DNA from: an uncultured Clostridia bacterium
Lineage (GTDB): Bacteria; Bacillota; Clostridia; TANB77; CAG-508
Length of the DNA stretch: 64,000 nucleotides
Direction of reading: 5' to 3'
Assembly: GCA_949045875.1 (NCBI GenBank)
Contig: CARPYP010000008.1
Location: 3,747-67,746, forward strand
In this document: positions 52,919 through 57,846 of the stretch, one piece after another
Layout of the letters: each line of letters opens with the position of its first letter
How positions within the stretch are numbered: the first letter of the stretch is position 1
Notes under the pieces: generated by a model
What the model saw: the letters and a program-made list of their open reading frames with translations, nothing else
Databases searched by the model: none
Told to the model about the DNA's origin: nothing
Program-made: the position numbers and the translations under genes

Positions 52919-53188
52919 TTTGTTTACCTCCATTCGGTTTTTTTCTACATATTTCGTATTTTATCATACATATTTTATAAATTCAATGTATTTGTTCTAT
53001 TTTTACTCCTTTAGTTAACAAAAGAGGAATGTTTAAATTTCCTTGACCTTTTAGATGGCTTTCATCTTCGTTTTTGTTCGCCCGCCAATTCTACGTAGTA
53101 AAAAAATCTTGGCAAAACCAAAATTTTTTTGTGTAAACACATGCAATAAAAGTCCACTCCCAATATTACATATGCTCCTCTATAAATT

Positions 53189-54526
53189 TTATTTAATGTA
53201 AAGTGTTATACGAAATCCGATATCCAATTCAGTGCTAGTAGCGTGACTAACGCCATGGCGGTAACACGCTGGGAAAGTACTATACACATTAAGAAAGCTA
53301 CCACCACGGCGAACGTGGTATTGAATATTTGTTTCGTTTATGTTGCCCGCCTTATAGAATGAGCTTTCATCTGTCCATTCCCATAAACTTCCTGCCACAT
53401 CATATATGTGGTATTTTTCTGTTTGTTTACTTGCTCCTGTTGTTAGTAAATCTCCATCATTAGAACTATAATTACTCGTTTTTCCTTCTGTTTCTCCTCC
53501 AAATACTCCTAAGTACCAACTATTTGAGTACCATCCCCTTGCCATTCTTCCTTTGTATTCTATACTGTTATTCGTATAATTTCCCCAGTTTGCTGAGTTT
53601 GTTAAGTCTGCTTCTGTTAAGTCTGTTTTTTCTACTATTCTTTTTAGCATTACATCCCACTGTGTTCCTGTTATTAGTCCACTACTTACACTATTTGTAT
53701 TATACATGCTTTTTGCATTTTTTTGTGATGTTGTCCAGTCTATAAAATTCCATGGTACTTGTCCTGCTCTACTTTGTGGTATTCCCTCTTTATTATATAT
53801 TTGGTTTGAACCTGTTTGTTGCTGTGTTTGCGTAAATTCAGGAATTGTTTCTGCAAGCCCTGCTTCATATCTTGCTACATAAAATCCTTCATATTTTCTT
53901 ATTTGTGGTAATTCTGAGGTATATGTTGTTTTATCCCATCCTCCATACGCTAATATAGTATGTGATTGTGTTGTTCCATTCCATACTTCACATTTTTTAT
54001 ATTCCTCTTCTGCACATGGTATCCATACAAATTGATTTCCTTTTAAATTTGTCGTATATTCCCATGTCGTTTTATCTATTTTTCCATCATATTGGTCTTC
54101 TTCATTATCACTTATTATTACTCCTGTGTTTAAGTCTCCTCCTACATAATAAAAACCAATTGGCACTGGTACTGTTTCTCCATTTCCTAATGATATGGCT
54201 GTTACTGTTTCTATGTTCCAGTTTTCTTTTGGGGCTACTACTGTCCCTATATCTTGTGGAGTTTCAGTTGTGTTTTCTGGTAGATTTTCATTGTGTACAG
54301 ACACAGGATCCACCCCTACATTATCTTCAATGTCTTTGGTGTATGTTGCTAATCCAGTTGATATTAATGTCTTTTCTACTTCTTCTCTTGCATTTTCTTT
54401 TATTCTTTCTAGTGTTTTATTTGTACTTGCTATATTACTTATTAACATTACTGTTACCAAAAATAAAACTATACTTAATACATATATTATTTTTCTTCCT
54501 CTTTTTGTAGTTAACACTTCTTTCAT
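53189..54526 (-). CDS. membrane-anchored FGE-sulfatase / C-type-lectin-fold domain protein, paralog 1
   Basis: N-terminal TM anchor; FVWIP..., GFYVARYEAG, QVPWNFIDW, ITGTQWDVM, VAGSLWEWTDE, and RRGGSF...DIGFRITL at the extreme C-terminus (SUMF1/FGE-type fold). Confidence 0.7.
   Translation of the reverse strand: MKEVLTTKRGRKIIYVLSIVLFLVTVMLISNIASTNKTLERIKENAREEVEKTLISTGLATYTKDIEDNVGVDPVSVHNENLPENTTETPQDIGTVVAPKENWNIETVTAISLGNGETVPVPIGFYYVGGDLNTGVIISDNEEDQYDGKIDKTTWEYTTNLKGNQFVWIPCAEEEYKKCEVWNGTTQSHTILAYGGWDKTTYTSELPQIRKYEGFYVARYEAGLAETIPEFTQTQQQTGSNQIYNKEGIPQSRAGQVPWNFIDWTTSQKNAKSMYNTNSVSSGLITGTQWDVMLKRIVEKTDLTEADLTNSANWGNYTNNSIEYKGRMARGWYSNSWYLGVFGGETEGKTSNYSSNDGDLLTTGASKQTEKYHIYDVAGSLWEWTDESSFYKAGNINETNIQYHVRRGGSFLNVYSTFPACYRHGVSHATSTELDIGFRITLYIK
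53210..53308 (-). other. VR-like 99-nt hypervariable, A-depleted segment at the 3' end of paralog 1
   Basis: The segment CGTGGTGGT...ATCGGATTTCGT uses codons that are rare elsewhere in the window (CGC, CGT, GCG, GGC). 19 A in 99 nt of coding strand by hand count. Confidence 0.5.
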
Positions 54527-54568
54527 CTTCTGTCCTTCTTTCTTTTTCTAGATTTTGTATATTTTTAA

Positions 54569-55402
54569 TTAATTATCATTTTCAAATAATTCTTTAATAT
54601 ATAAATCTCTATTTTTTAATTCATTGCTTTTTTCTTGTAATAAGTTTTCGAAAAACATTATTAAATAATCAAATCTAGGATAAATTCCTTTGGGAATATT
54701 TCCATAATTGCTTCTTACTAAAGCATTTCTAAAGTATAAACTTTTATCTTTAAACATATCATTATTAACATTAAATCCCATATTATTAAGGTATTTTTCA
54801 ATGAATACTGCTGTTGTCCTTGTATTTCCTTCTCCAAAAGGATGTACTTGCCAAATGCTTGAAGTAAATTTTGCAATATGCTTTATCAATTCTTTATTAT
54901 TTAGTTTTGAATAATCAAATTCTTTTTCTTCTTTAAAATCATATTCCAAATAGCTTTCTATATCTTGATAATTTACATATTTAACAGTCTCTCCGTTTAG
55001 TATATCCTCTTTTTTTGTAATATTATAATCTCTATAATTACCTGCAAAGTTATATATATCTTTAAATAAGTATCTATGAATGTTTTTTAATGTAATAGGA
55101 CTAAATCCAAAACTTTTATCTTCTAATAATTGTGCGATTCTTAATGAAACTAAATCACATTCTTTTTCTTTTCGAATATTTATATTGCTAATATCTTGTG
55201 TTTTATAGTAGTCTTTTAATAAGTTTTCTACTTCATAATATTTGAGTTCACCATTAATATTTTTTTGGGATAAATCTAATAAATATTTAGAAGGCTCTAA
55301 ATTATCAACTTTATTTAATCCAATACCAGTACTCCAATATTCCTGTTTTTTTGTGATATCAGTTGTTTCATTTTCAATTATATAATTTTCTTCATTAGAC
55401 AT
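54569..55402 (-). CDS. fic: Fic/DOC family protein (AMPylase-type motif)
   Basis: HPFGEGNTRTTAVF matches the Fic motif HPFx[D/E]GN[G/K]R. 277 aa. RBS AGGAGAG. Confidence 0.85.
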   Translation of the reverse strand: MSNEENYIIENETTDITKKQEYWSTGIGLNKVDNLEPSKYLLDLSQKNINGELKYYEVENLLKDYYKTQDISNINIRKEKECDLVSLRIAQLLEDKSFGFSPITLKNIHRYLFKDIYNFAGNYRDYNITKKEDILNGETVKYVNYQDIESYLEYDFKEEKEFDYSKLNNKELIKHIAKFTSSIWQVHPFGEGNTRTTAVFIEKYLNNMGFNVNNDMFKDKSLYFRNALVRSNYGNIPKGIYPRFDYLIMFFENLLQEKSNELKNRDLYIKELFENDN

Positions 55403-55467
55403 ATAAAACTCTCCTAATTTATTTTAATCTTAGATTATTGACTAGACAAAAACTCCGTCCACTTGTC

Positions 55468-56820
55468 TTATTTTAGATATAAAACCACACGAAATCCGAT
55501 AAATGGATGAGTATAACTAACTATATTACCCCCATGGCGATAACACGCTGGTTGATCCTCATAGCCAAGGATACAATTACCACCACGAAGAACTCGGTAT
55601 TGATCATTTGTTTCATTTGTATTTCCTGCTTTACATAATGATGCTTCGTCTGTCCATTCCAATACGTTTCCTGCTACATCAAATATATGATACTTTTCTG
55701 TTTGTCTGCTTGCTCCTGTTGTTAACAACTCCCCATAAGTATAAGCTTGTTCATATATACTTGTTTTTCCTTCTGTCTTTCCTCCAAATGCTACTAAATT
55801 CCACATACTTGAATAATTTGTTTTTGCCATTCTTCCTTTATATTCTATACTATTATTTCTATAGTTTCCCCAGTTAGATGAGCTTGTTAAATCTGTGCTT
55901 TCAATTGAGCCTTTTTCTAGCATTTTCTTTAACATTACATCCCATTGGGTTCCTGTTATTAATCCACTACTTACACTGTTCGTATTATACATGTTTTTCG
56001 CATTTTTTTGTGAGGTTGTCCAGTCTATAAACACCCATGGAACTTGATTTACTCTACTTTGAGGTATTCCTTCTCTATTATATACTTGATTTGAAACTGT
56101 ATGTTTTTGTGTTGACGTAAATTCTGTTATTGTTTTTGCTAGTCCTGCTTCATATCTTGCTACGTAAAATCCTTCATATTTTCTTATTTGAGGTAATTCT
56201 GAGGTATATGTTGTTTTGTCCCACCCTGCATTACATAAGGTTCCTGTTTTTGATGTTGTTCCTGAGGGTTTTTGTGTTATTCCATTCCATACTTCACTTT
56301 TTACATATTGCTCTTCTTTGCATGGTATCCATACAAATTGGTTTCCTTTTAAGTTAGTCGTATATTCCCATGTTGTTTTATCTGTTGTTCCATCATATTT
56401 GTCAGCTTCTTCATCACTTATTATTACTCCAGTATTTAGGTCTCCACCTACATAGTAAAATCCAATTGGTACTGGCACTGTTTCTCCATTTCCTACTGAT
56501 ACTGCTGTTACTGTTTCTATGTTCCAGTTTTCTTTTGGTGCTACTATTGTTCCTATATCCTGTGGAGTTTCAGTTGTGTTTTCTGGTAAGTTTGCATCAG
56601 ATAGTGGGCGATTACTAATCGCCCATACATCTTTTGTATATGTTAATGTACCGTTTGAAATTAATGTGTTTTCCGCTTCTACTTTTGCATTATATATTAT
56701 TTTGTCTAGTGATGTTCTTGTACCTACTATATTGCTTATTAAAATTATTATTACAAATAATATGGCTATACCTAGTATAGTTATTATATTTCTTTCTCTT
56801 TTCTCTAATTTTTCTTTCAT
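55468..56820 (-). CDS. membrane-anchored FGE-sulfatase / C-type-lectin-fold domain protein, paralog 2
   Basis: Collinear with paralog 1 (GFYVARYEAG, QVPWVFIDW, ITGTQWDVM, VAGNVLEWTDE, LRGGNC...FIGFRVVL). Start moved to ATG 56820 (GAAGGACAGAAG-ATG, the same RBS as paralog 1). Confidence 0.7.
   Translation of the reverse strand: MKEKLEKRERNIITILGIAILFVIIILISNIVGTRTSLDKIIYNAKVEAENTLISNGTLTYTKDVWAISNRPLSDANLPENTTETPQDIGTIVAPKENWNIETVTAVSVGNGETVPVPIGFYYVGGDLNTGVIISDEEADKYDGTTDKTTWEYTTNLKGNQFVWIPCKEEQYVKSEVWNGITQKPSGTTSKTGTLCNAGWDKTTYTSELPQIRKYEGFYVARYEAGLAKTITEFTSTQKHTVSNQVYNREGIPQSRVNQVPWVFIDWTTSQKNAKNMYNTNSVSSGLITGTQWDVMLKKMLEKGSIESTDLTSSSNWGNYRNNSIEYKGRMAKTNYSSMWNLVAFGGKTEGKTSIYEQAYTYGELLTTGASRQTEKYHIFDVAGNVLEWTDEASLCKAGNTNETNDQYRVLRGGNCILGYEDQPACYRHGGNIVSYTHPFIGFRVVLYLK
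55489..55587 (-). other. VR-like 99-nt hypervariable, A-depleted segment at the 3' end of paralog 2
   Basis: Same length and same invariant blocks as 53210-53308 (CGTGGTGGT; CCAGCGTGTTAYCGCCATGG; ATCGGATTTCGT), with scrambled blocks between them. 22 A in 99 nt by hand count. Confidence 0.5.
56604..56630 (+). repeat. Rep-A-like hairpin (type 2) lying in frame inside paralog 2
   Basis: GTGGGCGATTACTAATCGCCCATACAT: stem GGGCGATTA/TAATCGCCC. On the coding strand it encodes V-W-A-I-S-N-R-P within a block that differs from paralog 1. Confidence 0.45.
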
Positions 56821-56862
56821 CTTCTGTCCTTCTTTCTTATCTTCGTTTATAGTATAACACAA
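56747..56862 (+). repeat. 116-bp direct repeat, left copy (5' end and promoter of paralog 2)
   Basis: ATTATTACAAATAATATGGCTATACCTAGTATA...TTTCATCTTCTGTCCTTCTTTCTTATCTTCGTTTATAGTATAACACAA. Roughly 90% identical to 57869-57984 by eye. Confidence 0.8.
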
Positions 56863-56899: not shown

Positions 56900-57550
56900 T
56901 TATATTAATAACTTTTCAAGGTTAGATTGAATTTTGGGCTGAAATTCTATAAAATATCTTTTTATTTTCTCCCAATCATAGTCAACAAAATTTTGTGGTA
57001 ATATTTCTTGCTCAGCATCTTCAAAATAGCTTAATCCCATTATGATATTAGCATAATTTATGTTTTCTCCACATTTTTGTAATAATCCATTCGCTAACTC
57101 TAAAATCATAATATCACTTTTAGTAAGTATATTATATAAGTCAAAAAAGTCTTTTTTAGCTCCTCTTCCTCCTATTGCAACTAACTTCATTACTGCTATA
57201 TCTAATATACTTGCTAGTTTTAATTTAGGCATTTCTTCTGGTATAATAAGATTTTTAATTATTTTATTTGGATAATAAAAAAAACTAATTTGTACTCCAT
57301 TTACTATTACATCACATGTTCCTTTCTGATTTTGTTTAACCTCCATTGTTCCCAATTTTCCTAACTCTTCTAATAATATTTCATTATTAAATTGTTCTGG
57401 CACACAAAAGTCAAAATCAAATGATTCCCTTAAACCTAATTGCAGTGATAATGCTGTACCACCTATCATATAATAGTTAGGTATACTTACCATTTCTATT
57501 ATATTATTCAGTAATTTATATCTATCATTATCAATTATATTCCAATACAT
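56900..57550 (-). CDS. nucleotidyltransferase, AbiEii/AbiGii-toxin-like
   Basis: IGGTALSLQLGLRESFDFDFCVP resembles the GGTAL...R.S.D.DF motif of AbiEii-type NTases. 216 aa. The start overlaps the upstream stop (TAATG). Confidence 0.6.
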   Translation of the reverse strand: MYWNIIDNDRYKLLNNIIEMVSIPNYYMIGGTALSLQLGLRESFDFDFCVPEQFNNEILLEELGKLGTMEVKQNQKGTCDVIVNGVQISFFYYPNKIIKNLIIPEEMPKLKLASILDIAVMKLVAIGGRGAKKDFFDLYNILTKSDIMILELANGLLQKCGENINYANIIMGLSYFEDAEQEILPQNFVDYDWEKIKRYFIEFQPKIQSNLEKLLI

Positions 57551-57846
57551 TATTTATTCACTCTCCAGTATTCATAATTCATAGCTGTAGTCCATATATA
57601 ATATGCCATTTCCTCCTTTTTTAAGCTAAATTGTTGCTTTAGATAATTCGCTACTAATGGTTTTAAGTTTCTACAATTTCTTGCAACATCTTCTATATCT
57701 TCATTACTATAGTTCTCTTTTACCCATCTTAGCGCTTTTAAATCTCCATAGCAATATAATCTGGAAATTATATACCTTTTATTTTTTTGTATATCTAATT
57801 TTTCAAATTTTGTATCCCAAAAATATTTTTTTAATTCCTCTGGCAT
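57550..57846 (-). CDS. 98-aa putative cognate antitoxin (DUF6922-like)
   Basis: Translationally coupled upstream partner of the NTase gene. RBS AGGAGGTAAAT-ATG. Family name is from memory of similar gene pairs and is not verified. Confidence 0.45.
   Translation of the reverse strand: MPEELKKYFWDTKFEKLDIQKNKRYIISRLYCYGDLKALRWVKENYSNEDIEDVARNCRNLKPLVANYLKQQFSLKKEEMAYYIWTTAMNYEYWRVNK

Follow-up and report, generated by a model that had tools for sequence, protein, structure and literature searches.

Two lectin-fold surface proteins of an uncultured gut Clostridia bacterium probably end in orphaned variable regions of a lost diversity-generating retroelement

In diversity-generating retroelements (DGRs) the adenines of a template repeat (TR) are mutagenised, and the variable region (VR) of the target sits at the C-terminus of proteins with a C-type lectin (CLec) or FGE fold. 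The element of Bordetella phage BPP-1 is phage-borne and rewrites, with adenine specificity, the C-terminal CLec binding face of the tail-fibre target Mtd; the sequence immediately downstream of its VR, where a hairpin/cruciform lies, is needed for efficient homing (PMC3240598). TvpA of Treponema denticola is one of several paralogous cell-surface targets of a non-phage DGR; it has an FGE-type CLec fold, and its VR occupies the very C-terminus (2Y3C; PMC4891356, PMC5758913). In cyanobacteria, CLec paralogs were found away from any reverse transcriptase (RT), among which all3226 of Nostoc sp. PCC 7120 keeps remnant TR-VR homology, and it was proposed that the diversification components may be removed after selection of a good variant (PMC7517822). 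Here we describe two paralogous genes in a 64,000-nucleotide (nt) stretch of an uncultured Clostridia bacterium (GenBank assembly GCA_949045875.1, contig CARPYP010000008.1, positions 3,747 to 67,746; hereafter the window). A first-pass annotation, made from the letters of this stretch, had suggested that their 3' ends are DGR variable regions and the genes themselves possibly remote DGR targets. We consider it probable, at about 80%, that these ends are orphaned and frozen former variable regions, now static, of genes that were once DGR targets.

Paralog 1 (53189-54526, minus strand, 445 amino acids by the list of open reading frames, ORFs) and paralog 2 (55468-56820, minus strand, 450 amino acids counted from the ATG at 56820, with an ORF that reaches upstream to a TTG at 56862) have the same architecture, that of a membrane-anchored protein of FGE-sulfatase/CLec type. 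Each carries at its 3' end a VR-like segment of 99 nt with the frame RGG-x27-GFR, VR1 at 53210-53308 and VR2 at 55489-55587 (both minus strand), which starts at CGTGGTGGT and finishes at ATCGGATTTCGT. Like the cyanobacterial paralogs, the window genes are duplicated CLec-fold targets distant from an RT, but their host belongs to the uncultured low-GC gut Clostridia, and they bear an N-terminal membrane anchor instead of kinase or caspase fusions. Unlike Nostoc all3226, they have no template left in the window, and the evidence for their history comes from relatives and from biased codon and adenine usage, with decayed cassettes in sister lineages. With TvpA they share the cell-surface, non-phage setting, the FGE-type CLec fold, the extreme C-terminal position of the VR and the presence of several paralogs, whereas in Treponema a live TR exists from which the targets differ at adenines only, and the window genes stand without TR, RT or Avd in 64 kb and do not vary; the sequence similarity of TvpA to the window family is marginal (profile E = 0.055). 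The likeness to Mtd lies in what would have been adenine-specific rewriting of a C-terminal CLec binding face, and a conserved element behind the VR of active relatives occupies the position of the BPP-1 hairpin/cruciform (PMC3240598). Unlike BPP-1, the window family is almost absent from viral contigs, and the window genes have no such downstream element. The FGE/SUMF family (PF03781; 1Y1E, 1Y4J) has the fold family and the C-terminal RGG...GFR motifs in common with our paralogs, for which, in contrast, nothing indicates an enzymatic function, the closest characterised relatives of the subfamily being DGR targets. A frozen relic is not new in kind, since it has already been described in cyanobacteria (PMC7517822).

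The segment lengths, the 63 identical positions out of 99 between VR1 and VR2 and the 19 and 22 adenines, which the first-pass annotation had counted by hand, were all reproduced exactly. The 36 differences are distributed over the three codon positions as 10/15/11. Paralogs 1 and 2 are ~80-95% identical at the nucleotide level (48-58 nt in blocks of 60) along the greater part of the genes, and identity drops to ~65% in the final ~120 nt; a second zone of low identity, ~65-73%, lies around 53450-53630. The invariant blocks of the two segments are confined to them within the window, the 20-nt central block and the 12-nt terminal block occurring twice each where shuffles expect 0.00 and 0.07 occurrences. 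The 99-nt segments are therefore a real observation, beyond chance.

The depletion of adenine is equally firm. Among 13,510 in-frame 99-nt windows taken from the 40 other genes of the window, the mean number of A is 45.9 (sd 5.8) and the minimum 26, above the 19 and 22 of the segments, and values of 25 or less are confined, in each paralog, to the final ~40 codons. T amounts to 34-35 of 99 in the segments, that is, the depletion is specific to A without an overall enrichment of G+C. The codon counts of the window genes bore out the further claim that CGC, CGT, GCG and GGC are rare outside the segments: arginine is encoded by AGA or AGG in 412 of 448 codons elsewhere (92%; CGC, 3/448), GCG accounts for 41 of 807 alanine codons and GGC for 38 of 889 glycine codons. 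In the last 40 codons, by contrast, all four arginine codons of each paralog are CGN (8/8 in total vs 8% elsewhere), and the upstream parts of the same genes use AGR in 10 of 10 and 10 of 11 cases. A occupies the third position in 59% of the codons that precede the segment and in 9-15% of those within it, and codons ending in C or T make up 76-82% of the segments (82% in VR1) vs 31-32% upstream in the same genes. CGN arginine, C/T third positions and NNY codons are the compositional design of a DGR target, which the segments have kept.

What this design means can be judged from the protein family. A search of a collection of 5.8 billion proteins returned 1,583 relatives of the paralogs, with a common C-terminal scaffold (RGG-x-PACYR-x-VS-T-x-GFRVVLYIK) in which hypervariable positions are interspersed. 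The low-adenine 3' patch is present in every member of the family (>1,500 proteins), and the adenine fraction of the VR in active family targets is 0.13-0.21. One 90% cluster of 122 members, P0094, is an actively diversified DGR target and was used as a positive control for hypervariability; its VR is different in 15 of the 15 members listed, with only six variable columns elsewhere. At its locus (L001) the target is followed by bAvd, the RT and the TR, which repeats the VR over 119 nt, and 12 of the 13 VR/TR mismatches fall at TR adenines. A scan of the GTDB species genomes yielded 80 loci, all in metagenome-assembled genomes (MAGs) of uncultured gut Clostridia from human, mouse and rabbit. 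Counting L001 with 15 of these 80, avd and RT lie directly downstream of the target in 16 loci, and a TR copy of the adjacent VR is present in 15 of the 16; in four TR/VR pairs inspected base by base, 11-13 of 12-14 mismatches were at TR adenines. Our paralogs are homologous over their whole length to proteins shown to be DGR targets; the nearest of these beside an RT (L018, L029, and L050) have 47-49% identity with them, and the VRs align codon for codon. The suspected resemblance to DGR variable regions has thus become a position-by-position homology to genuine ones in the same protein family (L001 and the 16-locus set). A viral origin of this family was considered and rejected; IMG/VR holds one partial relative, against 278 relatives in genomes, and the family is cellular.

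The footprint of a template is still legible in the window segments. In a codon alignment of VR1 and VR2 with the L018 TR, which is of equal length, the window codons are NNY in 13 of 14 cases opposite the seven AAY codons of this TR, and TNY in seven of eight opposite its four TAY codons. VR1 and VR2 differ at 17 of 29 positions where the L018 TR has adenine vs 19 of 70 positions elsewhere (Fisher p = 0.005). Over 15 distinct VR-like segments from the window's clade, the column entropy is 1.38 bits at TR-adenine positions vs 0.67 elsewhere (p = 3e-7). The L018 and L050 TRs were rejected as the cognate template, being too diverged (34-44% mismatches at non-adenine positions), and were used for positional enrichment only. 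Homology and these statistical footprints together point to a DGR history of both genes.

No functional part of such an element was found beside them. The RT and Avd of L001, used as phmmer queries against all window ORFs of at least 60 amino acids, gave no match, and the same queries recovered 16 RT-bearing and 16 Avd-bearing related loci; when RT and Avd sequences of several loci were compared with the window by tblastn, no match had an E value under 1. Within the 64-kb window, the conserved blocks occur at the two VRs only, and so do matches to a degenerate pattern that tolerates A, in agreement with the first reading, which had seen no RT, avd or template repeat there. This pattern (99-nt IUPAC, allowing at each position the VR1 base, the VR2 base or A; 117 bits) matches both VRs in the window and in six other assemblies (L002-L007). 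It had no match in genome_contigs or metagenome_contigs, where the VRs themselves were unrecovered because the organism is not represented, and this result is uninformative on a remote TR. A pattern for the TR-specific 3' end, GGATTTCGYGTRGYACTCTAA, had three matches in metagenome_contigs, all in unrelated DNA of 59-62% G+C, and here too the L093 contig described below was unrecovered.

Active relatives carry a conserved element, CTGRAC.CT..GCGAT (also written CTGAACGCTT..GCGAT), 2-3 nt after the stop codon of the target in 14 of 16 RT-bearing loci; beyond these loci it occurs, in 1.5 Mb of related DNA, only in L067. This post-stop element has no match on either strand of the window and is lacking in both paralogs, as in the other targets of the window's clade that have no cassette remnant. 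The intergenic DNA from the stop of paralog 1 to mutS (52934-53188, minus strand, 255 bp), which in active relatives is the place of the post-stop element and then of avd-RT-TR, contains no Avd or TR remnant that we could find. Where the VR of active targets finishes with the G+C-rich sequence GCCGTACT or GTGGCACT, erosion has left ATAACACT in paralog 1. At L067 (11194-11212) the post-stop element reads CTGAACGCTTGACAGCGAT and stands behind a target without recognisable RT or Avd in the surrounding DNA; this target may be a genuine remote one in its genome.

Both segments are constant among the strains sampled. Paralog 1 is on record as an identical protein (P0001) and as a one-residue variant on 43 contigs (P0121), paralog 2 as an identical protein (P0028) and as a one-residue variant on 39 contigs (P0130). 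VR1 is invariant in 10 of 10 cluster members and VR2 in 11 of 11, the substitutions being elsewhere in the proteins. In seven other assemblies (L002-L007 and L094), the 4.6-4.9 kb compared contain 0-23 substitutions, all of them outside the two VRs. The 5.8-billion-protein collection has no near-identical protein whose VR differs; its next match to paralog 1 is 75% identical. The site-restricted polymorphism that had been expected of a current target at 53210-53308 and 55489-55587 was thus absent from related strains. Between species, P0033, the ortholog of paralog 2 in another species (L015), is 78% identical to it inside the VR and 82% outside, and the nucleotide differences inside include synonymous changes at non-adenine positions. 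Other paralogs are ~80% identical outside the VR and only 15-44% inside. Taken with the 78% of P0033, this contrast suggests that VRs were rewritten wholesale between paralogs at an earlier time and have been vertically inherited since. The window therefore lacks the attributes of an active target, namely a cognate TR, RT/Avd, 3' homing signals and site-restricted hypervariability, and displays those of an orphaned one, namely homology to DGR targets, a residual signature of adenine mutagenesis and, between orthologs of paralog 2 only, an ordinary evolutionary rate of the VR.

Two side observations concern the strain variation of paralog 1. In L094, the most divergent strain, all 15 substitutions in this gene lie within 121 nt (54013-54133) and change residues 141-150 towards paralog 2, which looks like gene conversion between the paralogs. 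In the cluster of paralog 1, P0126 is a 612-amino-acid variant with a longer and different N-terminal part (60 differences in the first ~100 aligned residues) and a C-terminal part, VR included, identical to paralog 1; it may be a fusion or a mis-assembly.

Cassettes in the course of decay were found in relatives. The loci whose proteins are 58-75% identical to those of the window have no recognisable RT in the flanking DNA covered, which reaches at most 10 kb on each side of the gene. In L093, from a sister species (~72% identical protein), a TR remnant and a truncated Avd without RT lie between two paralogs. The TR homolog (L093:460-597; JGI sample 3300006217, Ga0081461_1003986) has intact TR-specific flanks, and its 87-nt interior, T/G-rich and out of register with the 81-nt VR interiors on both sides, retains three adenines. 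The template itself may have been overwritten here, with loss of its adenines; decay or an assembly artefact are the alternatives. At one MurJ-adjacent locus of this sister species, three VR alleles occur in different samples (L091:11140-11238, L093:2727-2825, and the L099 gene 6001-7260); they are separated by 13-17 nt differences within the VR (102 nt) and 11-17 in the 1,158 nt outside it, a pattern that marks diversification at this locus as recent on sequence comparison. One of these alleles is identical to the VR of the upstream L093 paralog, which suggests copying between paralogs. A second decayed cassette (L022:11232-12022) consists of an Avd fragment and a TR-like copy without RT; the copy is one codon longer than the adjacent VR (indel) and has mismatches at non-adenine positions.

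The MAG CAKOTZ from the Hadza gut (L040-L054, L060, and L084) encodes 15 or more paralogs but a single avd-RT-TR cassette (L050). The VR next to this cassette alone fits the TR, with 1 of 84 non-adenine positions mismatched vs 17-43 of 84 in the others; in the least diverged of the non-adjacent VRs an excess of mismatches at adenine positions persists. Judged by these comparisons, orphaned VRs are the majority state in the family, few members of which still appear coupled to a retroelement. Some paralogs are pseudogenised, with the break in or just before the VR-like segment, as in L008:14704-14814 (in-frame stop, CFRAV*), and the P0027 protein cluster includes truncated variants that end in FRDQLLNVNS.

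The fold of the paralogs was assigned from Pfam and from a profile search of PDB sequences, not from a structural model. PF03781 (FGE-sulfatase) matches paralog 1 with 29.2 bits and paralog 2 with 27.7 bits, above the Pfam gathering cut-off of 23.3; the matches cover the C-terminal 70-140 residues only and extend to the last residues of both proteins. The family profile found SUMF2 (1y4j, 4e-5), several FGE structures and TvpA (2y3c, 0.055) among PDB sequences. By both methods, each paralog is a CLec/FGE-fold protein that carries its VR C-terminally, as DGR targets do. NCBIfam assigned no family to either of them. The AlphaFold2 (AF2) model of paralog 1, built from a 35-sequence alignment, has a long N-terminal helix (residues 8-56) and a mean pLDDT of 66, with values of 38-64 across the last 90 residues and below 65 over the segment; Foldseek of this weak model against the PDB gave noise only, with no match at E <= 0.001. 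The RGG and GFR motifs are generic, being conserved across FGE-sulfatase domains, including those of enzymes untouched by DGRs, and are by themselves no evidence for a DGR. From the fold and the membrane anchor, the most likely function of the paralogs is that of binding proteins anchored at the cell surface, each with its own fixed specificity.

Other explanations have to be weighed against a frozen former VR. The paralogs could be live remote targets, rewritten in trans and perhaps rarely by a DGR elsewhere in the genome, as non-phage DGR targets more than 100 kb from their RT are documented (PMC5758913). The RT and TR searches covered only the 64-kb window, the adenine content of the segments is still like that of active family VRs (0.13-0.21), and the sister species does have three VR alleles at one locus. 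We nevertheless judge a live target very unlikely: where all members of the active P0094 differ, VR1 and VR2 are invariant in 10 and 11 cluster members, with near-identical proteins on 43 and 39 contigs, and the 5.8 billion proteins contain no near-identical one with an alternative VR. The few differences between strains lie elsewhere in the genes, the post-stop element is missing, the 3' end of the VR of paralog 1 is eroded, and the ortholog of VR2 has diverged at the rate of the whole protein, synonymous non-adenine changes included. The idea of a current target is contradicted by these results; of the earlier wording that the retroelement would be elsewhere or lost, the evidence favours the latter part and not the former. 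As for a retroelement-free origin, by point mutation under diversifying selection on a ligand-binding face with the conserved blocks kept by fold constraint, which had been named as the alternative from the start, the conservation of RGG and GFR in all FGE-sulfatase domains, the even spread of the VR1/VR2 differences over codon positions (10/15/11) and the position of 19 of the 36 differences at non-adenine sites of the L018 TR would all suit it. Selection at the protein level, however, leaves the synonymous choices unexplained, with eight of eight arginine codons CGN in a genome that is 92% AGR and third-position A reduced from 59% to 9-15%. The variable columns match positions that are template adenines in active relatives (p = 3e-7), DGRs demonstrably write homologs that have this scaffold, and the clade includes a decayed cassette. 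We regard ordinary diversifying selection as very unlikely because it gives no account of adenine-avoiding synonymous codons in a genome of 28% G+C; it fails on the adenine-free scaffold codons as well as on the variable columns at template adenines. A recent horizontal transfer, or gene conversion, of the 3' cassette from a donor of higher G+C would have to produce a patch that is A-depleted and not G+C-enriched (T 34-35/99), that ends where the TR/VR homology of active relatives ends and that recurs in every member of a family of >1,500 proteins. Such an event is hardly credible, even though the composition of the patch is sharply unlike that of the rest of the genes and gene conversion between the paralogs seems real (the 15 substitutions at 54013-54133 in L094).

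Several points weigh against the frozen former VR that we prefer. The window VRs mismatch the distant TRs (L018 and L050) at 34-44% of the non-adenine positions, because of which the ancestral template is not recovered and the enrichment at adenines is statistical rather than exact. The negative results for RT, Avd, and TR cover the 64-kb window, not the complete genome, and a DGR may lie elsewhere. The strains of the species differ very little (at most ~1% in both genes), which weakens the argument from invariance when it is taken alone, and for paralog 1 no ortholog with a conserved VR was found beyond its own cluster. The AF2 model is too weak to confirm that the segment would form an exposed binding face.

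If the segments are frozen former VRs, we infer the following order of events. An ancestor in low-GC gut Clostridia would have carried a target-avd-RT-TR cassette, whose mutagenic retrohoming wrote differing sequences into the C-terminal ligand-binding face of duplicated targets. Loss of the cassette would have followed, together with that of the homing signals behind the VR, and each paralog would since have been inherited with a fixed sequence, subject to ordinary point mutation. The adenine-free scaffold codons, the NNY variable codons and the paralog differences at former template adenines would be the footprint that remains. More speculatively, DGRs of gut Clostridia might act as transient "repertoire writers", in which the cassette diversifies duplicated surface lectins and then destroys itself or is deleted, leaving from two to more than 15 fixed specificities; we hold this generalisation to be doubtful at present. 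A possible route of self-destruction is suggested by L093, where the template may have become a homing recipient with irreversible loss of its adenines.

DGR surveys rely on a TR/VR match, and genes like our paralogs are invisible to them. Sequence alone is nevertheless enough to recognise a former target, the marks being a local shortage of A, arginine written as CGN where the genome prefers AGR, and codons of the NNY type. Relics of this kind would make up the majority of a large family of surface proteins in one gut lineage. This offers a way to count past DGR activity and allows us to ask if variants were "locked in" once selected, as has already been suggested for cyanobacteria. For annotation, the window would be described as encoding two fixed lectin-fold surface proteins and no hypermutation locus.

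The mutS gene is the downstream neighbour of the paralog array. A link between the family and the mutS neighbourhood, through a MutS_I fragment beside the L001 cassette, was dropped, as tblastn with the window MutS found no similarity there. A Fic-domain gene (54569-55402, minus strand; Pfam Fic 6.9e-14), which is context and not part of a DGR, separates the two paralogs, and the short spacer 3' of paralog 2 (55403-55467, minus strand) contains an inverted repeat, AGACAA...TTGTCT, different from the post-stop element. Upstream of the paralogs lies a gene pair encoding DUF6922 and an AbiEii-type nucleotidyltransferase (56900-57846, minus strand; Pfam), part of the island context. The order paralog-Fic-paralog and the DUF6922/AbiEii pair are also kept in the related locus L008. 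The array thus sits inside a small island with the Fic gene and the DUF6922/AbiEii-type toxin-antitoxin pair, which recurs at another chromosomal site (L008:9016-13646). Throughout the window (1-64000) the minus strand carries almost every long ORF, and T exceeds A on the plus strand (45.7% vs 26.4%); this excess and the ORF orientation indicate a strong gene-strand bias over 64 kb, in a genome of ~28% G+C.

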